The notes below the pieces were generated by a model. That model was not told where the DNA came from and made no database searches. It saw only the letters and a program-made list of their open reading frames with translations. From Candidatus Omnitrophota bacterium (GTDB lineage Bacteria; Omnitrophota; Gorgyraeia; Zapsychrales; Aceulaceae), in NCBI GenBank assembly GCA_028693815.1, contig JAQUUP010000004.1, positions 29,683-93,682 on the forward strand: 64,000 nt of DNA, written 5' to 3'. Position numbers and translations under genes: made by a program. Of the stretch, positions 1,501 through 45,158 are shown one piece after another (position 1 is the first letter of the stretch; every line of letters begins with the position of its first letter).

Positions 1501-2136
1501 ATGGATTTACCCGCTAATACAATTGAAAGAATCACAAAAATATATGGATATCTTGACGCATTAGCAGAGAGAGAAGTGGATTTTGTTTCTTCGAAAGAAT
1601 TGGCTGAGGCTGTGGGCACAACGGATCATACAATTCGAAAAGATGTTAGCCTTTTAAAAATTACAGGTTACACCAGAAAAGGGTATTGTGTTCGATCTTT
1701 AAAGGGCGAGCTAGCTAAAAAGCTCGAGCTTGATAAAGAGCGAAAGGCCTGTATTGTTGGTTTAGGCAGGCTTGGAACAGCGCTCTTAGACTATGAAAAG
1801 GCTAAACAGGATGGATTTAAGATTGTGGCAGGATTTGATTGCAGCATTAATAAGCTTGAGAGGATTCGTGCTTCGATTGATGTATTTTCGATGAGTGAGC
1901 TTGAAAACATCATTAAAGGCCGCAATATCGATCTTGGCATTATTACAGTGCCCGCTAAAGCTGCTCAAGAGGTAGCTGATCAGTTGATTGCAGCTGGAAT
2001 AAAAGGAATTCTTAATTTTTCTCCAGCAAAGATTGTTGTGCCAAAGAATATTATTTATGTGGATATGGATTTTACAAATGCTTTGCGTTTTATGGCAGTA
2101 AAGTTTATTACTAAAAAGGAAGCCCCGCGCCCTTGA
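1501..2136 (+). CDS. rex: redox-sensing transcriptional repressor Rex
   Basis: A winged-helix N-terminus is followed by a Rossmann fold (GLGRLGTALLDY...GFKIVAGFD) typical of Rex. The ATG at 1501 follows GGGAGG. Confidence 0.85.
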   Translation: MDLPANTIERITKIYGYLDALAEREVDFVSSKELAEAVGTTDHTIRKDVSLLKITGYTRKGYCVRSLKGELAKKLELDKERKACIVGLGRLGTALLDYEKAKQDGFKIVAGFDCSINKLERIRASIDVFSMSELENIIKGRNIDLGIITVPAKAAQEVADQLIAAGIKGILNFSPAKIVVPKNIIYVDMDFTNALRFMAVKFITKKEAPRP

Positions 2137-34460: not shown

Positions 34461-37400
34461 ATGAATAAAAATATATTAAAGAATAGACCTTTTTTAAGGG
34501 CGATTTCCCTATTTGTTATTTTGGCTTTTGGGGAGAGCGTGCTTATTCCTCAATATGTTCCTAAGGTTTTGGCGCAGAGTGCTTTAGGAGTTCCTTCTTC
34601 AGGTGCAGTTATTCATTTAAGTCAGCCATTTACGCCTGTTATTTTTAGGGGTTTAAAGGTTTTCCCAAAAGATCCCCTAAGATTTGATTTTATTGTTGAT
34701 CGTGCTGATTCTAAGCTTGAAAAGGAAGAATTTAAGTCTGAAACCGAAAAATTAATTCGTTACTTTTTGGCATCTTTGACAATTCCTGAAAAAGACCTTT
34801 GGGTTAATCTTTCTCCGTATGAGCAAGACCGCATTATTCCACGAAGTCTTGGAAAAACAGAGATGGGAAAAGATATGCTAGCTCAAGATTATTTGCTAAA
34901 GCAAATCACAGCTTCTTTGATTCACCCAGAGGGTGACACAGGCAAGAAGTTTTGGCAACGAGTTTATAGTCGGGCTTATCAAGAATATGGCACAACTGAA
35001 ATTCCTGTGGACACGTTTAACAAGGTTTGGATTATGCCTCAAAAGGCTGTTGTTTATGAATTTGGAGATCGGGCTTTTGTGCTTGAGAGCAAGCTAAAGG
35101 TAATGCTGGAAACAGACTATTTGGCAATGCAAGAAGATAGAAGGGAGAGGATGGAAGATAGAGGAGGTGTTCCGATTTTGACTGCTGGGTCGCAGTCAAA
35201 ACGGAATAAATTCGCGCAGGCTGACTTGACGTCGACTCAAAGTCTCCGTAAGTCAGGCGCTCATTTAAAAAGCAAGTTAGCCTCTGACATTATCCGCGAT
35301 ATTGTTATTCCCGAATTAGAAAGCGAAGTCAATTTTGGTGAGAATTTTGCGCAATTGCGCCAAATCTATCATTCCATGATTTTGGCAGCATGGTTTAAAA
35401 AGAAACTTAAAGGATCGATCCTCAATCAAGTTTATGCGGATCAGAACAAAATTAAAGGCGTTGATTTAGTTGAAGAGAATGTTTCGCAAGAAATTTATGA
35501 TCAATATTTACAAGCATTTAAAAAAGGTGTTTGTGATTTTATTAAAGTCGAACATGATCCATATACGAATAAGAATATTCCAAGAAAATATTTTTCCGGC
35601 GGTATCGAATGGGTGGCATCAAGTAATATTGAATATGTTACAAATATTTCGAGTCAGCCGCCTGTTTGGGTGTCGAGCTCAAGCCTTGAAGGTGTTGATT
35701 TGAATCTCAAGCCGGTTTTCGATGCTCCTGATCAAGAAGCAGGATCTAATATCGTAGATCTAATTTCGGCTTTAAGCTTAGCTGGATATCCTCAAAAAAA
35801 GAATCAACAAAGAAATATTGTTTTGATTGGTTCAATAGATAGTCTTGAAAGCGCAATCTTTCTTTCAAATAAGTTTCCAAAATCAATTATTTATGTTGTT
35901 GAGGAAGATGAACAGTTTTTTGAAGAGCTTAAAAAGCAGCTTAAAGAAGTTGATGACGATCAAAATACGACAGGCATTCAGTTGATCCATGCGCATCCTT
36001 CAGATGTTTCGGATTCTTTGGCTAACGAAATGATTGATTTGGTTTTGATGGACAGTCATGTTGATTATTATGGATACATACAAAATGAACTTCCTGATAT
36101 TTTAAAAGAAATTAAACGTATCCTAAAACCAAAGGGCATTTTTTGTGCTGATTCTATTTCTTATTTTAAAGAAGCAAAACAAGATCTTGAAGTTCTAGGG
36201 TTTTTTTATTCGCAGCCATCTGAAAAAAAATATAAGGATTGGATTTTGGTTGCTGAGAAAAAGATTTCTTCATCTGTCACCGATTCCGCGCAGTCTGTTA
36301 TCTCGGATCTTAAAAAGGACTTGGGTCAAGGACCGTGGGTTTTTTATGCGTTTGGCGAAGTTCCTCATATTTATTGGGATGATAATTTGGATATTGAATT
36401 TTTTAAGAAAAAACAACAAGATTTTCTTAGATCCGCAACGCAATTGTCAAAATCAATTCCTTTTGAATTTGATCTAATACAGAGAGGAAGACTAGATTCT
36501 TTTACTATTGAGCTTCTTAAGAATGCCTATGATGCCCTTTTAGCTGTTTGGGACAAGGAGCTGCCTCAAAAGAATATTGCTTTGAAAAACTATATTCCAC
36601 AAGTAATGTTTGATATGAGTATTGATGATGACTCTTTGATTATTTCGGTTTACGATAATGGAATCGGTGACACAGCAAGTCGAGAGATTTTTACAAAACA
36701 TAAGAATCAAAAAGCTAACGAAGGGAAACGTTATTGTTATCTTGGCGGCGGTGGCTGGGGATTAATAAAGGTGCAGTATATCAAAAGTCTTTATAAAGGG
36801 GATTTTTCCTTAACGCTTGGAAACCGATCTAGCCGTTTTACACATGCAAAGATTACTATTCCTTTATCTAAGCTTGTTATCAAAAACAATGAAAAATTAG
36901 ATAAGCTAAGCTCCTTTTTTATAAAATCTGACTCTGCGCAAGCGAAAGGCAACAAGATTTCTTCGCCTACAACCGACCCCGCGCAGGTGGTCTCAAGCGG
37001 AATCCTTTTACCGGTTGACATCGAAAAAGAAAAACAGGGTTTTATTTCAGATTGGAATAAGTATTATCAGGATGGACTTGGCGCTGAAAAAATGAAGCTG
37101 ATGGTGGAAAAATCTAAAGGGGTCATGTCGATTTATGATTTTATAAAGATATGGATGGTAAAAAGCAAAAAGACGCTCGGAGGATATTCCTTGGGTATCA
37201 ATGAAGAATCTTATTTTGGATTTTGCGATTTGGCTGGACTCACAAATCATTATGAAGGCTATAAAGAGATGGAAATAACGTTTTTTGGGAATCCAGATCA
37301 CAGGTATATCCAAAAAATTTCAGCCACAGGAAAACCAATCGTTTTCTTTATTCCTAAAAACATTTTTACCTATTCAGACAATTATGCACAGCATACAAAA

Positions 37401-40400
37401 ACCGAAATGAGATATTTGCTTGAAAATTTTTCTTATTTAGAAAACGTTTATTTCGTCTTTGGAGCTTATGAGATTATTCCCCAAGAATATGAAGAAGAAT
37501 GGATGGAGAAATGTCCAATCCGGCTTAGCGGAAGAGAATGGTATGCAAAGCTTATCGAGAAGGTTTTTTCTGATGTGAACGACGTACGACGAACATCGAG
37601 CGACGCCCGCCTGCCGGCGAGGCAGGATTCACGCTTCACGATCGGCGAAGCTGCCGCCGACCTGCCTGACCGGCAGGCAGGCTCCGCGCAGGCGGGGGGA
37701 AAGTCCGCAGCCAATAACGAAAGTAAGTCAATCATCTCATCATCGATAGGGGTCAGGATGACTCAAGAAAAATTTAGTCATGAGCTGGGAAGACCTTTAA
37801 GTGAAGGTGAGTGGGCTCTTGTTGATGCGCTTTGGAGAATTGTGCCCTCTTCTAATGAGCAAAATCAATCTCTTTCTATCTGGAAGAGGGTGCGCAATCA
37901 GAAAATCTTTTCTAAAAAAGCATCAAGACCACGTTCTGCAGATGAGGATATTTTAGATATTTTTAGAAAGATGGATTTGGTGTTTAGAGGCGATGCTAAG
38001 CAAAAAAAGGATTTTATTTATCAAATGGAAAATTATGTTCATTTGTATTTAGAGAAAGAAAAGAATTTTGAAGGTTTGGAGCCTTTTGAGTTGCTAAAAA
38101 CGGTGTTAGCTCAAGCTAATCAGTCTCGGCCTTTGGATCGGACATTGATCGTGTTGAGCGATGTAATCGACAGAGGATTAATTAAGTCTGAAGAAACTAT
38201 CGTTGGAATTGCTGAGAAATTTCATTCTGATCCATCTCAATGGAAAGATATTCCTGATCAAAGCTCAAAAAAGAAGTCTATAATCGGGAGAAAACCGGTG
38301 GTTTTGTTGGTTGATGATAATCCAGGCCAGATCAGAGAGCTTAAGGTTTCTTTGGAGAATGCGGGATATGATGTTGACTTTGCCATGGCACCTGAAACAG
38401 GATTGAAGAAAATTGAGGAATCAATCCCTGATCTTATTGTCACCGATTGGGAAATGGCGCCTTTCATGGATGGCATAACATTTATTAAGAGACTTAAAAA
38501 ATCTTATCCAGATATTCCGGTTGTCTTTAGGTCAGGTGACGTTGGAGATGGTGATGACAGCCGTAGCATGCGAGGGAGTTTTATTTTAGCTGCGTTTGAT
38601 AATGTTGTTGCTGTTTCTGGGAAGTTTCGCGAAGAAGATGTCGCATTTCAAAAGATTCAAGAATTCGTCAAAACCTCCAGCCCGATGGGTGATCAGGTAT
38701 CGATAGATCTTGATATGGAAAAACCGCAAAAAGGATCTGTTTACGTAGGAAACGATGAAGTTTTTCCTAAAGCGGTGAGAGAATTTTTAGGAGACAGAAG
38801 AGTTTTGGTTATGGAAAATATATGCGATCAAGAGGTGGATGCGCAAACTCTTTCTTTGGCTCCTAAAAAGATAGACAATCCTGTTGCGCTTAGAGTGATT
38901 GTTGTAAGGTCAGCAGATAATCTGGAGGATAAAAAGCCTCTTTGCAATGTCTTTGTTTTGGATGCCTCAGATAAAGATGCTCCTATGTTGGCGTATTCAA
39001 GCATGAAGATGAACACGGAAGAAGGCTATTATATGCAGACATGGTCGAAAAGGACAGCTCCTTTTAGTATTCCAAGACAAGCTTTTATTCAACGGTCAAT
39101 AGTTTTATTGTTAGCTAAGGGAGGCATAAAGGAGCATAGATCTGATACTGAGGGAGGCTTGCAAAATGATCGATCTAACGATAGATATCTTAATATGAAG
39201 AACGATTCTCGCCTTGAGGTCATTGCTGATAAGGGCTATATTGTTAGATATATTGGTGCTTCGAGTGGTTTGATGGGGGATGGAAATGCTGAAGACAGTG
39301 ATCAGGATTTGCATATAACGGAGGCGCTTCGAAAAAAAATATCAGAAAGTGGCATGGTTAAGGCGTTTTCGGAAACCGAATTTTTTGAGGATCAAAGGAT
39401 TAAGAATGAAGATGATTTAATTGAGGCCCTTAATAAACATTCTCAAGGAGTATTTGATATTAGAGAGTTTAAGCAAAGAGAGTTTTTAGAAGACGTTTAT
39501 GCGTTTGGACCACGCGGAGAAAGACATAACAAAGTAGTTGAGGAATTAGGATTTATCCACTATATGACATCTTTAGAGCCATATAATTTTGTTTTTTCTC
39601 ATTTAATTAAGAAATTAATTCAGGAAAAATCTAAAATTGTTTTTTTTGTTGGCAGAAATCTTGATCAGCAACATTTCACGAAGCTTACAACTGAAGAGTT
39701 GAGATTGCTTTTTGATAAAGAGGGATCCATAGAAAATGTTTATTTTGTTTTTGGTCTTTATGATCCTTTGCCTAATGTTGAGAATGCGTATCAAATAAAA
39801 GAAGATTCTCATGATGATGTAACAGTCGAAATAGAAAAAGGGAGCGAGGACAGGGATCATCGGGTAGTGAAGAAACGCAGAGCCTTTCCCAAAACAGTTG
39901 CCAATGAAAAAGCTGTTAAGAAAATTGAAGAATTTTTAAAAACTGAAAAAGGATTTATCCAATATGTTCTTGATTTTGTGGAGAAAGAAAATGGTCTTAC
40001 TTACTGGTTCTCCGATGGTTTTATCGCCTATCTTAAGAAAAGATTAGAAAAAGAATTTTCAATAAACATAACAACGCGAATGCTTGTCGATTTGTTTGGG
40101 CTTAATTCGGGTCTCTATAGCCTAGGGTTAAATGATAAGAATTTGAAAACAGGAGGAATTAGGGATAGCACCCGAGATGTTTTGATGAGTGATTTTATGA
40201 GCCATCAAGGGCCAGAGGCAGAAAAATCAAAACGATATTTTATTGAATTATGTTCAAATAAATATGTTCAAAAAATGTTTAAAAATCTTGAGCCAGGAGC
40301 GGTATCGATTAGGGATGGTGTTACGCTTTTTGATTATTTGCTTAAACGTCTAAAAGAAAGTTTTTCAGGCTACGTTATCGATTTTATCAATTCAGGTGGA

Positions 40401-43400
40401 AATTCTTTTTGGGATTTAAAAGGTTCACAAGGACTTTATGCCTATTCAAAGAAAAGGCTTGAGCAACACTTAGGTGGAGAGATAACAAATCTCATGTATT
40501 CTAATTTGCTAGGTTTTTCTTTTCCTAGTTCAGAAAAAAGGCGCCTTACAGGTGTTATATATAGTAAAACAAGAGATTTGATAGTTGCAAGATTTAGGCT
40601 TGAAGGAGAAGCGAGAAAAGGCATAGATAAAATTTATGAAAATCAAACAAGAAATATCGATGAGGAAAAGCTGCGCACAATAAGATTAAAATCAAAAGCT
40701 GAGAATTATATTCGGGGAGGGGCGTTTGAGAAGTATGTAGTTGATTATATTAAGAAATATGGATCAGGAGTTTTTGCAGATACTAAGGGGAAAGAAGGTT
40801 TTTATTTTTATGCTAAAGAAAGAGTAGAGCTTGATCTCAACGCCAAGATAGATGATTTGCTTTTTAATCGTATTTTAGGGGTTAAATTTAATTTATCAAA
40901 GAAAAAGAGATTTCATACAAGATCTATGCTGATGAACCTTAAAAAGATCGATCTGATATGCAATAAATTTAATATCGACAAAAAAATTAAGAAATATTTA
41001 AAAGGTATATGTTTTCAGAGTAGAGAGGGGAAAAAAGCTATTCTTAATGACTTTTATGTCCCATATTTTAAAGAAAAGCTTGAAGAATATTTAAAGCGAG
41101 GGGATCAGAATATTGTAAGCCTTTTTGGGAAAGATGGATTTTTTTACTATCTTTTTACTAGGGGATCTTTTTTATTGGAAGCGCACGCGCAATTTCTTGG
41201 TGTTGAAGAGGATGTTTTGGCTAATTTAATGGAAGGAAACATCGAAGGGTCCATTCTCGATGAATTAAAATCGATTCCGATTACCATAGGTCTCAGCGCT
41301 AAATTGAAAAATATATTTTTGAATCTTTTAGAAGAAGAAAAGGAAAACAAAAAGTTTTCTGGCATAACTAATTTAAAGGAGTTCGCTTTTGGTCCCAAAA
41401 GGCAGGTTTTAGAATCGGTAGCTTCTAGCGTTGTTACGCTTAGAGACGGCAGCACGATTCCTGAGAGCGTGTATCGAAATGTGCGTGATGCTCTTGGCTT
41501 GCCAGACAACAGAAATCCTGAAAAGAAGTATTTTACAATTTTTCAGGGTGGCAGCAGTGATGAGGCAATAAGGATTTTGAGCCTAATTGCTTCTAAAGAA
41601 AATTTTAATAAAAATGATTTTTTAAATTTAGCGATGGGTGGCAACCGGGATTTGTTTAAAGATATTTTGCGTTATTTAGCAGAAAAAAATTTGGTTGTTT
41701 TTAGTGGAAAGTTTGAAGACAATATAAAATTTGATCGAGATAGCAGCTTGTCTATGGATAGCACAGTTGCGCTCTTGATTCGCGCAAGCATTGATACGAG
41801 CGGAGACCCTTTCAGAGGAACTACATATTTTGCTTTTCAAGATCCGCTTTCGCAGGATAGTAGTAAGATTTCTTCTCCCACCATTGACCTCGCGCAGGCC
41901 ATGACGGCAGGGGAAAAAACGAGTTCATCAGGTATCAAGCTTATCGATTCGAAATCGGTCAAGCAAGCCATTGAAGAGGCGAGTCCGTTCGATATTCAGG
42001 TTAATGGTCAAAAGATCCCCATTTATTTGTATTGTAATTTTTCTGATGATCTTAGGGCATACAAAAAGAATGTTGTTTCGTTGATGATCCAAGCGATGCC
42101 TTTTGGCAGGAATGTCCGTTCTCAAGAATACAGAGAGGGGATTGAGGGTCACCCGGCGCTTTCGAACCTTTTGAATATTTCATCTGATCTTGGAGAGCTT
42201 GAGAGAGGTGGGTTTTTTGGTTTACTAACTGCGTCCCTTGAGCAAAGATCTGATGGAAGCGTGGTTTTGTATTTTGAAGAGAATCAGTTTTCGAGCAATT
42301 TTAAGCGCATTAAGCCGGGTAGTGCGCGCAAAGCATATGAGGAGTGGGTTCCTCGAGCTCATAAACATCTCATTGATGTTTTAAAGAAAAATTTTAATGT
42401 GGTAGATGTATATGCGCTTTCCAAAGACGTTATCCATGAACATTATAAGAATGACCGCATTAGTAAGGCGCGGCTGAAAGGTGTATTTAAAAAAGACGCG
42501 GATGCGATCTGGAATGATCTTGTCGACCATCAATGGATTTTTTCATATTCTGTTGACGGATATGACATCGCGCGCGTTAATCCTGTGCCGCCTCAAGGCC
42601 GTGAAAGATTGGCCGGAGATTGGGATATGGAGAGATTAGATCGCTTTTTAAGTACTCCTCAATCGAAGGTGAGCGGAGAGAATTTAAGAGAAGCTTATAG
42701 CCTCCCTTATAATAGACCAGAGTGGCGACGCGTGACCATGCCTCTTCCTGAGGCTTTACGTTTCCAATGGGGAAACTCATTTTGGGGAAACACCGCAATA
42801 GTTGGCGATGTTGAACTTTATCATTATGAGCCGATGGGGGATGAGGCGCAAGGCAACAAGATTTCTTCGCCCACCTCCATTGACCCCGCGCAGGGAGGGA
42901 AAACTTCCTCTCCAACATTAGCTGAAATGCTTGTAGCATCGGAAGGGATTCCAAAATTTTTAATGGAAACGGCAAAAAGCGTTCTTTTTGAGAATGACGA
43001 GAAAATTAAGGAATTTTTAGGTATAGAGCAGATTAGAAGTGTTCGGTGTCGACCTTATTTTTTACATACACCATTGAGCCTTTTAGTTTTTACATTTGAG
43101 ACTGAAAAAGGACAAAGATCAATTTATGTTAAGCGTAAATGCTCTGACTTTGAACAAGAGCTTACTCTTGACGCTTCTCGGGAAGAGGTCTTTCCTCCAA
43201 GTATGATTTTAAATGAGTCCGATGGCAGAAAGGCACTGTTTATTCGAGGAATAGATGATGGGGCTTCTTTGGAAAAAGTTAAAAAAGACCCCGATTGGAA
43301 GAAGTTCTTTTTGAACAATGAAGAACATTTCGTTAAAAAAATAGGAAATCAATACGGAAAATTAAATAAAAAGGCAGATGTTATGCATCACGATGTTCTT

Positions 43401-45158
43401 CTAAGGCATATATTTATTACAAAAAATAAAAAGGTATTCTTAATTGATTTAACAACAGAAGATGATGATGGAAATCCGATGTCGTCTAGATGGAGGGGCA
43501 TGCTCCACTATCTAGGCGAGGATCTTTATAAGGTAAAAGGAAAAATTTTTAGTTTTGTCCGCGATCTTTATTCGAGCGACTTGGTTTCTGGAAAAATGTT
43601 ATTTAATGATTTTAAAAAGAAAGAAAATTTTTATCAACAGTGGGTTCAAGGAGGATATGACGAAATACCTGAAGAGGTTAATAGGCCCAGTAAAGAAAAG
43701 AATCCCTATTTTCCGGGGAAAGAAGAAATTGCCTCCAGCCCCGCTCAGGTAGGAGAGAGAGTTATTTCTCTGGATGATTATAGTAAGGGTGATTCAGATA
43801 TTCAAGGAAAAGCAGGTCAGTCGGCTGTCTATTTTTCCGAAGACGGGAAACATGTTTTAAAGATATTTAACAAAGATTTGGTTAAAAAGTATGTAAGTGA
43901 TGGCGAAATTTCCGATGCACATGTAGTTATTATGGCTAAAATTATATTGAATCTCTCTGAAGAAATGAAAAGAAAGTTCATGGACTCAAAAATAAAAATT
44001 GTAGTTCCTGAGCTTGTAAGAATCAAAAATGGTCCTTTGGCCCTTTTGTCAAAAAGAATAAAAGGGGGAGAGCCGTCTTTCTTAGATCGAGGAGCAGTTA
44101 AGAAGATAAGTGAATTTCGCGAACGGATTTCCGGCCTTCTTGCGTTTCCTATTCAGGACAGAAGAGAATTAGATTACACAAATTTTTTAATTGATGAGCT
44201 CACAGGGCAAATTTATTGTATTGATTTGATTGACATGATTAGCTTGTTCTACATTCTTGATCAGATCGAAGAGAAACCTTTTGACGACCTGGATCGGATT
44301 AGTAAAAGATTTATAAAAGATGATTTTGATAAAAAATCCATCTCCTTACCCATCGGCAAAGCCATCTCCGACCCCGCGCAGGCAGGGGATGGTGATCGTA
44401 GTCAAACGCTTGTGCAACGCTTTACAGGTAATTCTGTCATGGCAACTATTTCACAACGTAATAATGATGTGATCCAATTTATTAAGAATTTTCTTGAAAG
44501 CGATTCTATTTTTATAAAGGAAGCCATTAACCAAGGTGAGAATTTCTCAGATGAAGAAGTTAATAGTAGATGGAAGAAGATTTTAGAAGATTTTAGCAAA
44601 GATTTAGGCCCAAATCAGATTGTTGATAATTTAAAAGATTTTTTAAACATAGAAACGATAGGAAATTATGATATTCATCAAATGATATCTCATCAGATAA
44701 CGATTGCGCTAGGGGCCCTTGAGACTTTAACGGCCATTAAAAAGAAAAAGCCTGAAAAATGGACGGATCAAGAATATAACGCCGCGGTAGCCGAATGGGA
44801 GACAAGGGTAAAAGATTACGGCTTCCAAGCTTATATTACTTTGCGCGCTATTGAACTTGCTGCAAGAGAGGAAAAAATATCCTCTGTTTTCATAAACCAA
44901 ACAACCGGCGGTATTGATTTTGATCGAGACAATTGGGAGCTGGAGACTAGAGGCGAAGGAATTGAATTTGAGATTCCAGCGGAGCTTCAAGGGGTTAATT
45001 TTGATGAAATTCAAGGTTTTGTGCCTGTTATCATTAATATTGTGCCAATCACAAATATTTTGCTGATTCTCGGATTAAGTGAAAAAGATATTAAGAATCT
45101 TAAGTGGGCACAAGAGTTGCAAGTTGCAGATAAGCCTAGGGAATTAAGTCTGCTTTAG
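34461..45158 (+). CDS. giant 3565-aa multidomain protein: N-terminal signal/anchor, CCoAOMT-like SAM-methyltransferase core, GHKL ATPase, CheY-like receiver, duplicated unknown module, two atypical kinase-like cores
   Basis: A single open frame of 10,698 nt. Motif-level domain assignments are given in the findings. A promoter-like TGGCAA-17-TATACT lies upstream. Confidence 0.8.
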   Translation: MNKNILKNRPFLRAISLFVILAFGESVLIPQYVPKVLAQSALGVPSSGAVIHLSQPFTPVIFRGLKVFPKDPLRFDFIVDRADSKLEKEEFKSETEKLIRYFLASLTIPEKDLWVNLSPYEQDRIIPRSLGKTEMGKDMLAQDYLLKQITASLIHPEGDTGKKFWQRVYSRAYQEYGTTEIPVDTFNKVWIMPQKAVVYEFGDRAFVLESKLKVMLETDYLAMQEDRRERMEDRGGVPILTAGSQSKRNKFAQADLTSTQSLRKSGAHLKSKLASDIIRDIVIPELESEVNFGENFAQLRQIYHSMILAAWFKKKLKGSILNQVYADQNKIKGVDLVEENVSQEIYDQYLQAFKKGVCDFIKVEHDPYTNKNIPRKYFSGGIEWVASSNIEYVTNISSQPPVWVSSSSLEGVDLNLKPVFDAPDQEAGSNIVDLISALSLAGYPQKKNQQRNIVLIGSIDSLESAIFLSNKFPKSIIYVVEEDEQFFEELKKQLKEVDDDQNTTGIQLIHAHPSDVSDSLANEMIDLVLMDSHVDYYGYIQNELPDILKEIKRILKPKGIFCADSISYFKEAKQDLEVLGFFYSQPSEKKYKDWILVAEKKISSSVTDSAQSVISDLKKDLGQGPWVFYAFGEVPHIYWDDNLDIEFFKKKQQDFLRSATQLSKSIPFEFDLIQRGRLDSFTIELLKNAYDALLAVWDKELPQKNIALKNYIPQVMFDMSIDDDSLIISVYDNGIGDTASREIFTKHKNQKANEGKRYCYLGGGGWGLIKVQYIKSLYKGDFSLTLGNRSSRFTHAKITIPLSKLVIKNNEKLDKLSSFFIKSDSAQAKGNKISSPTTDPAQVVSSGILLPVDIEKEKQGFISDWNKYYQDGLGAEKMKLMVEKSKGVMSIYDFIKIWMVKSKKTLGGYSLGINEESYFGFCDLAGLTNHYEGYKEMEITFFGNPDHRYIQKISATGKPIVFFIPKNIFTYSDNYAQHTKTEMRYLLENFSYLENVYFVFGAYEIIPQEYEEEWMEKCPIRLSGREWYAKLIEKVFSDVNDVRRTSSDARLPARQDSRFTIGEAAADLPDRQAGSAQAGGKSAANNESKSIISSSIGVRMTQEKFSHELGRPLSEGEWALVDALWRIVPSSNEQNQSLSIWKRVRNQKIFSKKASRPRSADEDILDIFRKMDLVFRGDAKQKKDFIYQMENYVHLYLEKEKNFEGLEPFELLKTVLAQANQSRPLDRTLIVLSDVIDRGLIKSEETIVGIAEKFHSDPSQWKDIPDQSSKKKSIIGRKPVVLLVDDNPGQIRELKVSLENAGYDVDFAMAPETGLKKIEESIPDLIVTDWEMAPFMDGITFIKRLKKSYPDIPVVFRSGDVGDGDDSRSMRGSFILAAFDNVVAVSGKFREEDVAFQKIQEFVKTSSPMGDQVSIDLDMEKPQKGSVYVGNDEVFPKAVREFLGDRRVLVMENICDQEVDAQTLSLAPKKIDNPVALRVIVVRSADNLEDKKPLCNVFVLDASDKDAPMLAYSSMKMNTEEGYYMQTWSKRTAPFSIPRQAFIQRSIVLLLAKGGIKEHRSDTEGGLQNDRSNDRYLNMKNDSRLEVIADKGYIVRYIGASSGLMGDGNAEDSDQDLHITEALRKKISESGMVKAFSETEFFEDQRIKNEDDLIEALNKHSQGVFDIREFKQREFLEDVYAFGPRGERHNKVVEELGFIHYMTSLEPYNFVFSHLIKKLIQEKSKIVFFVGRNLDQQHFTKLTTEELRLLFDKEGSIENVYFVFGLYDPLPNVENAYQIKEDSHDDVTVEIEKGSEDRDHRVVKKRRAFPKTVANEKAVKKIEEFLKTEKGFIQYVLDFVEKENGLTYWFSDGFIAYLKKRLEKEFSINITTRMLVDLFGLNSGLYSLGLNDKNLKTGGIRDSTRDVLMSDFMSHQGPEAEKSKRYFIELCSNKYVQKMFKNLEPGAVSIRDGVTLFDYLLKRLKESFSGYVIDFINSGGNSFWDLKGSQGLYAYSKKRLEQHLGGEITNLMYSNLLGFSFPSSEKRRLTGVIYSKTRDLIVARFRLEGEARKGIDKIYENQTRNIDEEKLRTIRLKSKAENYIRGGAFEKYVVDYIKKYGSGVFADTKGKEGFYFYAKERVELDLNAKIDDLLFNRILGVKFNLSKKKRFHTRSMLMNLKKIDLICNKFNIDKKIKKYLKGICFQSREGKKAILNDFYVPYFKEKLEEYLKRGDQNIVSLFGKDGFFYYLFTRGSFLLEAHAQFLGVEEDVLANLMEGNIEGSILDELKSIPITIGLSAKLKNIFLNLLEEEKENKKFSGITNLKEFAFGPKRQVLESVASSVVTLRDGSTIPESVYRNVRDALGLPDNRNPEKKYFTIFQGGSSDEAIRILSLIASKENFNKNDFLNLAMGGNRDLFKDILRYLAEKNLVVFSGKFEDNIKFDRDSSLSMDSTVALLIRASIDTSGDPFRGTTYFAFQDPLSQDSSKISSPTIDLAQAMTAGEKTSSSGIKLIDSKSVKQAIEEASPFDIQVNGQKIPIYLYCNFSDDLRAYKKNVVSLMIQAMPFGRNVRSQEYREGIEGHPALSNLLNISSDLGELERGGFFGLLTASLEQRSDGSVVLYFEENQFSSNFKRIKPGSARKAYEEWVPRAHKHLIDVLKKNFNVVDVYALSKDVIHEHYKNDRISKARLKGVFKKDADAIWNDLVDHQWIFSYSVDGYDIARVNPVPPQGRERLAGDWDMERLDRFLSTPQSKVSGENLREAYSLPYNRPEWRRVTMPLPEALRFQWGNSFWGNTAIVGDVELYHYEPMGDEAQGNKISSPTSIDPAQGGKTSSPTLAEMLVASEGIPKFLMETAKSVLFENDEKIKEFLGIEQIRSVRCRPYFLHTPLSLLVFTFETEKGQRSIYVKRKCSDFEQELTLDASREEVFPPSMILNESDGRKALFIRGIDDGASLEKVKKDPDWKKFFLNNEEHFVKKIGNQYGKLNKKADVMHHDVLLRHIFITKNKKVFLIDLTTEDDDGNPMSSRWRGMLHYLGEDLYKVKGKIFSFVRDLYSSDLVSGKMLFNDFKKKENFYQQWVQGGYDEIPEEVNRPSKEKNPYFPGKEEIASSPAQVGERVISLDDYSKGDSDIQGKAGQSAVYFSEDGKHVLKIFNKDLVKKYVSDGEISDAHVVIMAKIILNLSEEMKRKFMDSKIKIVVPELVRIKNGPLALLSKRIKGGEPSFLDRGAVKKISEFRERISGLLAFPIQDRRELDYTNFLIDELTGQIYCIDLIDMISLFYILDQIEEKPFDDLDRISKRFIKDDFDKKSISLPIGKAISDPAQAGDGDRSQTLVQRFTGNSVMATISQRNNDVIQFIKNFLESDSIFIKEAINQGENFSDEEVNSRWKKILEDFSKDLGPNQIVDNLKDFLNIETIGNYDIHQMISHQITIALGALETLTAIKKKKPEKWTDQEYNAAVAEWETRVKDYGFQAYITLRAIELAAREEKISSVFINQTTGGIDFDRDNWELETRGEGIEFEIPAELQGVNFDEIQGFVPVIINIVPITNILLILGLSEKDIKNLKWAQELQVADKPRELSLL
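35180..35272 (+). repeat. structured hairpin element copy B, located in-frame inside the giant ORF
   Basis: The hairpin GACTGC-TGGGTC-GCAGTC is followed by TAAATTCG, a long hairpin (GCAGGCTGACTTGACG...CGTAAGTCAGGCGC) and TCATTTAAAAAG. It is translated as ...KRNKFAQADLTSTQSLRKSGAHLKSK... Confidence 0.6.
37570..37720 (+). repeat. GC-rich (about 70% GC) island with two perfect GC hairpins, in-frame inside the giant ORF
   Basis: The hairpins are CCTGCC-GGCGA-GGCAGG and CCTGCCTG-ACCGG-CAGGCAGG, embedded in an otherwise ~35% GC gene. The island encodes ...SSDARLPARQDSRFTIGEAAADLPDRQAGSAQAGG... Confidence 0.7.

Follow-up and report, generated by a model that had tools for sequence, protein, structure and literature searches.

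Several families of short palindromic DNA repeats have been described. Rickettsia palindromic elements (RPEs) are ~100-150 bp long, are confined to Rickettsia and its close relatives, and belong to the CGTC-tagged superfamily. The GC clusters and double-hairpin elements of fungal mitochondria are short GC-rich mobile palindromes of AT-rich genomes, occasionally found in frame in protein genes. The cyanobacterial small dispersed repeats (SDRs) are reportedly 21-27-nt mobile hairpins that nest in minitransposons and in each other, often within tandem heptamers. Here we describe a GC-rich island with two hairpins inside a gene from a Candidatus Omnitrophota metagenome-assembled genome (MAG). The gene (34461-45158) encodes a modular protein of 3565 aa and lies in a 64,000-nt stretch of contig JAQUUP010000004.1 (assembly GCA_028693815.1, positions 29,683 to 93,682), here called the window and numbered from its first nucleotide; all of its features given below are on the plus strand. 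We think it likely (probability ~0.8) that the island is selfish DNA, an inverted doublet of a dispersed 21-nt palindromic element that inserted into an interdomain linker.

In-frame palindromic repeats are an already known kind of element. According to the summary of earlier work (Ogata et al. 2000) in PMC3733652, RPEs lie in frame in functional open reading frames (ORFs) and are translated as an extra peptide. The authors of PMC3733652 suggest that such repeats are tolerated in "flexible linkers or loops". Repetitive extragenic palindromic sequences (REPs), too, have been found inside genes. REPs are GC-rich imperfect palindromes of 20-40 nt, often arranged as inverted doublets (REPINs) with the fold of a larger hairpin, that are mobilized by REP-associated tyrosine transposases (RAYTs) of the Y1 HUH type [PMC3116915, PMC3733652, PMC6006769]. 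Most of them are extragenic and have a GTAG or CGTC tag at one of their ends, and they flank and co-evolve with their cognate RAYT within a lineage; new copies insert beside or into existing copies, and a minority are intragenic [same sources]. PMC5861425 reports SDRs as confined to the Nostocaceae; it and PMC2884548 both cite the SDR study of Elhai et al. 2008 (Genome Res 18:1484). What sets the present family apart is its 7-codon unit, the lack of a GTAG or CGTC tag, the large intragenic share, a strong reading-phase bias, and one 21-mer that occurs in several phyla.

We found that the island is the sole GC peak of its kind in the window. A preliminary description of the sequence had reported a GC jump of ~150 bp inside an AT-rich ORF, holding two perfect GC hairpins and keeping the frame. 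Positions 37600-37699 are 76% GC, compared to a mean of 36.2% (sd 6.3%) for 100-nt intervals over the 64 kb, every other one of which is at most 62%. The jump (76% vs ~36%) was therefore correctly seen, but its size was not: the GC-rich core spans ~105-120 nt, and the 3' 30 nt that had been counted as island (from ~37683) are a native linker motif common to four other linkers at the DNA level. Both hairpins are exactly as claimed. Hairpin 1 (37610-37626) is the 17-nt CCTGCC-GGCGA-GGCAGG, with a perfect stem and a folding energy of -10.8 kcal/mol. Hairpin 2 (37661-37681; CCTGCCTGACCGGCAGGCAGG) is the canonical 21-nt unit, CCTGCCTG-ACCGG-CAGGCAGG, also with a perfect stem (-14.0 kcal/mol). The island is indeed in frame within the 3565-aa ORF, which stays open.

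The pattern CCTGCC-N3-9-GGCAGG occurs at two places in the window, both in the island, and gave 0 matches in 100 dinucleotide-preserving shuffles. Together the hairpins form part of a larger inverted repeat (37600-37626 and 37661-37687) with 81% complementary arms and 34 nt between them. The 151-nt stretch folds with -69.6 kcal/mol (z = -3.5), better than all 200 shuffles. Third-position GC is ~0.69 in the island, compared to 0.33 in the whole ORF and 0.31-0.46 in the protein's other linkers. This is so far above the rest of the gene that amino-acid composition alone does not explain the GC jump. An E-value scan of 37000-38300 with Rfam gave sub-threshold noise only. A variable region of a diversity-generating retroelement was considered as well and rejected, as the 64 kb contain neither another copy of the island nor a template repeat for it.

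Hairpin 2 belongs to a dispersed, multi-copy family that has unrelated flanks in many genomes. The preliminary description had suggested a scan for other CCTGCC hairpins; this found none more in the window but many in public collections (GTDB genomes and metagenomes). A degenerate pattern with 21 specified bases, a consensus of the two units within the island, matched 28 loci when run on GTDB genomes. Most were in Bacteroidota MAGs, on several contigs per MAG, and the other hosts were Ca. Omnitrophota, Ca. Magasanikbacteria (Patescibacteria), Planctomycetales, Acidobacteriota and Melioribacteraceae. Nearly all of these matches are the perfect hairpin CCTGCCTG-NCCGGN-CAGGCAGG, although loop-adjacent positions had been left free in the pattern. 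The exact 21-mer was found, in either orientation, in GTDB MAGs of Bacteroidota, Acidobacteriota and Planctomycetota, and close variants in Omnitrophota, Ca. Magasanikbacteria and Melioribacteraceae. The family is thus present in MAGs of at least four phyla. Among the metagenome matches listed, from which all counts for the exact 21-mer (contigs, copies, sites and flanks) are lower bounds, hairpin 2 occurs on more than 120 contigs, with at least 125 copies at at least 115 independent sites after flank clustering.

The composition of the hosts argues against chance. The 21-mer is 76% GC, and chance matches would favor high-GC genomes. In contrast, the hosts are mostly low-GC: the median GC of the host contigs is 0.44, and 62/115 sites are in contigs below 0.45. 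We compared 24 positions on each side of 123 copies and found the flanks unconserved, except that T is rare at -1 (2/123) and C or T prevails at +1 (111/123). At the clearly non-coding copies, 21 among 77 low-GC copies before de-duplication, +1 is C in 17/21. The fetched loci (879 kb) contain 51 further CCTGCC-type hairpins of 30 variants, and the hairpin is 21 nt long in 167/199 cases. Copies can be dense, with 3-6 hairpins per ~10-15 kb on four host contigs (L059, L068, L098 and L108), and one host is a complete-chromosome MAG (L010).

A site may have or lack the bare hairpin, with no duplication of the target. Copies of a ~190-bp repeat with terminal inverted repeats (TIRs) in Flavobacteriales MAGs differ by exactly one hairpin. 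Between "ctccgg" and "ctcgct", two of them (L011 and L029) contain an additional 21 or 17 nt compared to four others (L002, L004, L019 and L020), and no target duplication was seen. Seven hairpin pairs abut directly.

We found clean in-frame insertions of the hairpin in conserved proteins. Of 71 independent low-GC sites, 27 are at least 40 codons inside ORFs of at least 200 aa, and at most intragenic sites the GC island is just the 21 nt. Compared with solved homologues, DnaK shows a clean 7-residue gap (...alkd[LPDRQAG]agdk... vs ...vee-------agdk... in Escherichia coli), as does MurA (LPAGQAG). The gap is 20 residues in AroA, which has two hairpins, and ~33 residues in Elp3, which has several GC hairpins. 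Judged by sequence, the hairpin is also inside genes for RecG, AlaS, LysS, MurB, LysA, PdxJ and histidine kinases.

Among the intragenic copies there is a strong filter for a single reading phase, and hairpin 2 of the window uses that same phase. This phase, xxC CTG CCT GAC CGG CAG GCA GGN, encodes LPDRQAG and, in the other orientation, LPAGQAG. It was found in 24/27 independent intragenic copies (P = 2e-7, against an expectation of 2 of the 5 open phases) and in 4/4 GC-rich cases for which third-position GC gave a confident frame. No orientation bias was seen (11 vs 13). The rarer phases encode Cys and one phase has a TGA, the element being stop-free in 5/6 frames. The bias probably reflects selection against the phases that contain Cys or a stop. 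The overall pattern fits insertion at the DNA level followed by selection on the peptide.

In the window, the island is best parsed as a foreign insert of 78 nt at 37605-37682 (26 codons, aa 1049-1074; ARLPARQDSRFTIGEAAADLPDRQAG). It consists of a G, a degenerate unit 1 in reverse orientation, a 34-nt spacer, the canonical unit 2 and a C, and is thus an inverted doublet. Read from 37606, hairpin 1 is part of the degenerate 21-mer CCCGCCTGCCGGCGAGGCAGG, which matches 18/21 bases of the canonical unit in reverse orientation. Its 17-mer is also present in L017, an intergenic site of another Omnitrophota MAG, and in L022, and a degenerate unit much like it is in the LysA gene of L108. The spacer (37627-37660) is 62% GC and begins ATTCACG-CTTCACG. 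Hairpin 2 translates as LPDRQAG (aa 1068-1074) and is flanked by A at -1 and by the family-typical C at +1 (37682).

Directly downstream is the native linker motif (37683-37712), (T)CCGCGCAGG-CGGGGGGAAAGTCC..., which encodes SAQAGGKS and is outside the insert. Its CGCGCAGG is invariant in the island's 3' tail and in four other linkers of the ORF (36981, 41892, 42888 and 44376), and after CGCGCAGG the tail runs on like the 42888 linker. Because this tail is shared, we take the sequence from ~37683 to be native, with the foreign-looking part stopping at hairpin 2. Deleting the insert in silico gives ...TSSD/SAQAGGKS..., resembling the native linkers ISSPT..DPAQGGKTS. The empty site would then join ...GAC directly to TCCGCGCAGG... 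These exact boundaries are the probable ones; the collections searched lack an orthologue with an empty site.

The island is between two domains of the host protein. Domain A (37068-37580, aa ~870-1040) is a widespread domain of ~140 aa that ends ...ENVYFVFGAYE... and occurs twice in the protein. In an exhaustive phmmer search with aa 851-1275 as query, more than 100 matches to domain A covered query positions 20-165 and a few reached 198 (aa 1048); the matches end between aa 1015 and 1048. Domain B (37746-38249, aa ~1096-1263), which is followed by the receiver domain, was aligned by two relatives, P0019 over query 246-413 (from aa 1096) and P0029 over 306-417. With domain A ending at aa ~1048 and domain B starting at aa ~1096, the island (aa ~1044-1084) is in the linker, exactly between them. 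In an AlphaFold model of aa 851-1275, made with no alignment and too poor for use (mean pLDDT 41), confidence is lowest at query 196-251. The model has coil there, which would be weakly consistent with a linker.

The preliminary description had proposed a REP- or MITE-like insertion tolerated as a linker (MITE, miniature inverted-repeat transposable element), and this is supported by the hairpin family in the collections, the clean in-frame inserts in conserved proteins, and the position of the island between two domains. Its other proposal, horizontal acquisition of the segment, applies only insofar as the family of elements is spread over several phyla; an identity of 33 nt to a 76%-GC contig (L063, see below) is compatible with it.

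We envisage the following course of events. The repeat has the core CCTGCC(TG)-loop-(CA)GGCAGG and, at its canonical 21 nt, equals 7 codons, and two inverted copies would make the 78-nt, frame-preserving insert. It would have landed in a flexible linker of the giant Omnitrophota protein, immediately upstream of the protein's own ...CCGCGCAGG motif. The insert would be transcribed and translated with the gene, adding ~26 low-complexity residues (...LPARQ...LPDRQAG), and would be tolerated because the linker has little structure to disrupt. Strong hairpins in the mRNA could possibly affect translation between the two domains. As the unit is a palindrome, both of its orientations encode the loop-friendly LP(D/A)(R/G)QAG. 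Such translation compatibility may let the element colonize essential genes (for DnaK, MurA, AroA, AlaRS, LysRS and RecG) in low-GC uncultured bacteria.

At somewhat less than even odds, we suggest that the CCTGCC hairpin is an undescribed, exceptionally small, translation-compatible mobile element found across phyla, perhaps moved outside the known REP-RAYT pairing, and that the island is one doublet of it. If the family is as it seems, the known range of bacterial mobile DNA extends down in size and outward over phyla, and the insertions are a natural experiment that shows where in protein loops 7 defined extra residues can be accommodated. LPDRQAG and LPAGQAG, both from one fixed 21-mer, would also be a simple marker in the annotation of MAGs, where insertions inflate apparent protein divergence. 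For the window itself, an odd spike in composition would be explained as harmless parasitic DNA, and a true domain boundary would be marked in an otherwise unannotatable giant protein. The question raised is how one 21-mer persists and spreads among unrelated low-GC lineages with no visible linked transposase.

Of the known systems, RPEs are alike in that they insert in frame and leave an apparently functional protein; here the ORF of the window is open and the gaps in DnaK, MurA, AroA and Elp3 are clean. Unlike RPEs, the unit described here has a length of 21 nt, no tag that is visible in the base counts of the flanks, and an identical sequence in several phyla, its hosts being Omnitrophota, Bacteroidota, Planctomycetota, Acidobacteriota and Patescibacteria. 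The short GC-rich palindromes of the window (17 and 21 nt) resemble REPs, and the island as an inverted doublet, with 81% complementary arms around a 34-nt spacer, resembles a REPIN. In contrast to REPs, 27/71 low-GC sites are deep inside ORFs and 21/77 low-GC copies are clearly non-coding, there is no conserved tetranucleotide tag, the two Y1 genes found carry other REPs, and the same 21-mer crosses phyla.

The resemblance to SDRs is in the 21-nt hairpin unit, its nesting in the ~190-bp TIR element, the abutting copies, and perhaps the heptamer brackets of some inserts. However, the sequence is different and no identified host of the 21-mer is a cyanobacterium. To our knowledge, 7-codon in-frame invasion of housekeeping genes and a phase bias have not been described for SDRs. 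The fungal mitochondrial elements differ in being organellar and in having unrelated sequences and another taxonomic range. A MITE is 70-300 bp long with TIRs and a target-site duplication. The island has 78 nt and inverted terminal units, but neither the window nor the polymorphic site in the TIR element has a target duplication, and the spacer is not shared. The searchable literature contained general work on REPs, RPEs and SDRs and no paper on the hairpin sequence or on either peptide, which is not proof that the family is undescribed.

Several observations weigh against the interpretation of the island as an inserted doublet of a mobile element. The window has no hairpin copies other than the two units at this one site, so that either the family is rare in the host genome or the insertion took place long ago. 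Hairpin 1 departs from the canonical form and, as a 21-mer, sits in a rarer reading phase. The spacer and outer flanks have no relatives, except that the last 11 nt of the spacer are common to L063. No orthologue with the junction of domains A and B was found in a library of 1.84 billion representatives, in GTDB genomes or in JGI metagenomes. All genomic hosts of the family are MAGs or metagenome contigs, with 0 isolate genomes. Finally, linkage to a RAYT was not apparent: 2744 ORFs in 148 loci gave two PF01797 (Y1_Tnp) genes, on L022 and L124, each with its own, different REPs, in a survey of low power (~6 kb per genome).

Other origins of the island might account for some of these observations. 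The hairpins could be incidental parts of ~80-100 nt of coding DNA captured from a high-GC donor and patched in by illegitimate recombination or break repair. This would fit the 33 nt shared with L063 (~76% GC), the 62%-GC spacer without element-like relatives, and the single site in 64 kb. However, the island and L063 are no longer similar beyond these 33 nt in either direction, and both ends of the island coincide with inverted hairpin units, the canonical one in the family phase with C at +1. Composite inserts of the same units are found in AroA, LysA and Elp3 of other low-GC genomes, and we consider capture unlikely. It is also rather improbable that the island is a functional structured element, such as a translational pause, an RNase processing site or a recombination hotspot for module shuffling, as might be supposed from its strong predicted structure (z = -3.5) exactly at a domain boundary of a modular family with DNA-conserved linkers. 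Rfam gave no match, and hairpins are missing from the ORF's other linkers. The presence of the same hairpin between genes and in arbitrary loops of proteins that are unrelated points to a parasite rather than a signal made for a purpose. Exaptation of the hairpins at this site is possible.

The island might instead be a native linker that became palindromic in situ, with no foreign DNA, if template switching or slippage seeded by the GCGCAGG motif produced the CCTGC/GCAGG arms. In keeping with this, the 3' arm of the outer 9-bp stem (GCAGGCGGG, 37688-37696) overlaps the native motif, degenerate heptamers flank hairpin 1, and the collections lack an empty-site orthologue. Such an origin would leave unexplained the 21/21 identity with at least 115 independent sites elsewhere, as well as the shared phase and +1 base, and the other six linkers of the ORF have the motif and no hairpins. 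We rejected it on the exact identity with the dispersed family, and regard it as very improbable. An assembly chimera or artefact is harder still to credit. The source is metagenome-assembled, and a 21-mer common to many environmental organisms could lead to misjoins in a de Bruijn graph if k is small. However, the gene is in frame on both sides over 10.7 kb, hairpin 2 is directly followed by native linker motif again, and the canonical copy is in the selected phase. Random chimeras would lack the 24/27 bias, and the complete-chromosome MAG L010 has the hairpin.

If the island is an inserted doublet, copies of the element may spread through an enzyme that acts in trans and recognizes the hairpin in single-stranded DNA. 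A transposase of the HUH/Y1 type is our best guess, at clearly less than even odds. The main alternative is an RNA-mediated route, as proposed for the cyanobacterial SDRs. The Y1 transposase gene of L124 (1350-2330; DHIH...YIQNQEEHH type) is between arrays of GTAG-TCCCATAGGGAC repeats, a classical REPtron-like arrangement. L022 (1500-2150) is also REPtron-like, with GGGGCTTCAGCCCC hairpins and a perfect inverted repeat of 23 nt on either side of a RAYT-like gene. Phages were considered as vectors and set aside, because the 11 matches on viral contigs are all 61-69% GC, are partly homologous to each other, and are uninformative.

The metagenome contig L063 (~76% GC) has a stretch in common with the island. 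Its positions 2096-2128 (minus strand) are identical to 37650-37682 of the window over 33 nt (GCTGCCGCCGA, the hairpin and C), encoding the peptide AAADLPDRQAG. The identity extends 12 nt beyond the 21-mer that was searched for and ends abruptly on both sides. This hints at a shared sub-lineage or a co-transferred donor flank.

Directly upstream of unit 1 are four degenerate tandem heptamers (37579-37606; ACGACGT ACGACGA ACATCGA GCGACGC). The run is in the top 0.07% of window positions in our own scan, and Tandem Repeats Finder makes no call. The inserts in AroA (L014), RecG (L060) and LysA (L108) also have four heptamers bracketing hairpins; three extra heptamers are 21 nt, so that the frame is kept. 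An identical heptamer on both sides was found at 5/120 copies, compared to 3/2400 controls (P = 1e-5), at only ~3 independent loci, and tandem heptamers overall were not significantly enriched (8.3% vs 5.3%, P = 0.15). The heptamers of the window may, with some uncertainty, be associated with the insertion, and we treat them as unexplained.

Non-abutting CCTGCC pairs exactly 34 nt apart were seen in L011 (3412-3487), L029 (1371-1442), L125 (133-207) and the window (37610-37681). The 34-nt spacers at these sites are unrelated in sequence; L011 and L029 are related loci and L125 is unrelated. The constant spacing may reflect a fixed geometry of insertion beside a resident copy.

Other GC-rich hairpin modules were seen beside or near CCTGCC hairpins, also within genes, as in L015 (5131-6882, Elp3), L067 (a "PSTSSGQA" insert in DnaK) and the flanks in L013 and L018. 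Examples are gcgagcgacgaagcgaagcaatccag...ctggattgc, ccttcgacaagctcaggg and tcatgctgagcgtgccgaagcatga. These genomes thus seem to have several such mini-families, including the CCTGCC unit. In L118 (1795-2997), an IS91-family (Y2_Tnp) transposase gene has a canonical hairpin in frame near its C-terminus (...LINLPDRQAGGKTA), which places one element within the gene of another. In L028 (3992-4012), the variant CCTGCCTGTCCGGTAGGCAGG is within an apparent low-molecular-weight phosphatase-like gene and seems to give an in-frame TAG. This gene may have been disrupted by insertion in a disfavored phase.

The host protein is identical to NCBI MDD3374565.1, annotated "MAG: response regulator [Candidatus Omnitrophota bacterium]" and encoded by a contig of 106 kb, and is P0001 in the protein collection, where it is a singleton cluster at 90% identity. 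Pfam recognizes a receiver domain (aa 1281-1360) and a weak methyltransferase match, and nothing else. The neighboring genes (BamA, DnaB, GlmU and DinB) are those of an ordinary diderm chromosome. The exhaustive phmmer search with the segment from domain A through the island to domain B returned the protein itself and single-domain relatives only. A word-indexed search of 5.8 billion proteins gave no orthologue but also missed the 3565-aa protein itself, and is hence uninformative. The exact host protein has no record in the assemblies searched, and P0142, considered as a paralogue from the same genome, is not on record.

A search with the N-terminal domain found more than 1300 family members, the best 59% identical. 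All 120 matches listed are shorter than 670 aa, and negatives of word-indexed searches for giant proteins do not equal absence. Family members such as the relatives P0003, P0015 and P0019 have conserved N- and C-terminal modules with variable cargo between them. The interchangeable cargo includes methyltransferase, HATPase-like, receiver, kinase-like, NUDIX, HAD and ankyrin modules. The C-terminal module of this Omnitrophota family reads "GGID...GFVPVIINI", and there are several homologues of the N-terminal domain per MAG. The N-terminal, C-terminal and domain A modules have no Pfam model.

The linkers of the protein share a recurring motif, (G)NKISSPT..DPAQ, that is conserved at the DNA level (...GACCCCGCGCAGG) at 36981, 41892, 42888 and 44376. 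The DNA pattern is ...AAGATTTCTTCGCC..(6-12 nt)..GACCCCGCGCAGG, encoding K-I-S-S-P-T..D-P-A-Q, at 36950-36990, 41860-41900, 42855-42895 and 44355-44385, and it is also found at 43725-43750 and 36282-36295. The motif uses GC-rich codons within a 36%-GC genome. It could be a joint for recombination and module shuffling, or a processing site, in this modular Omnitrophota protein family.

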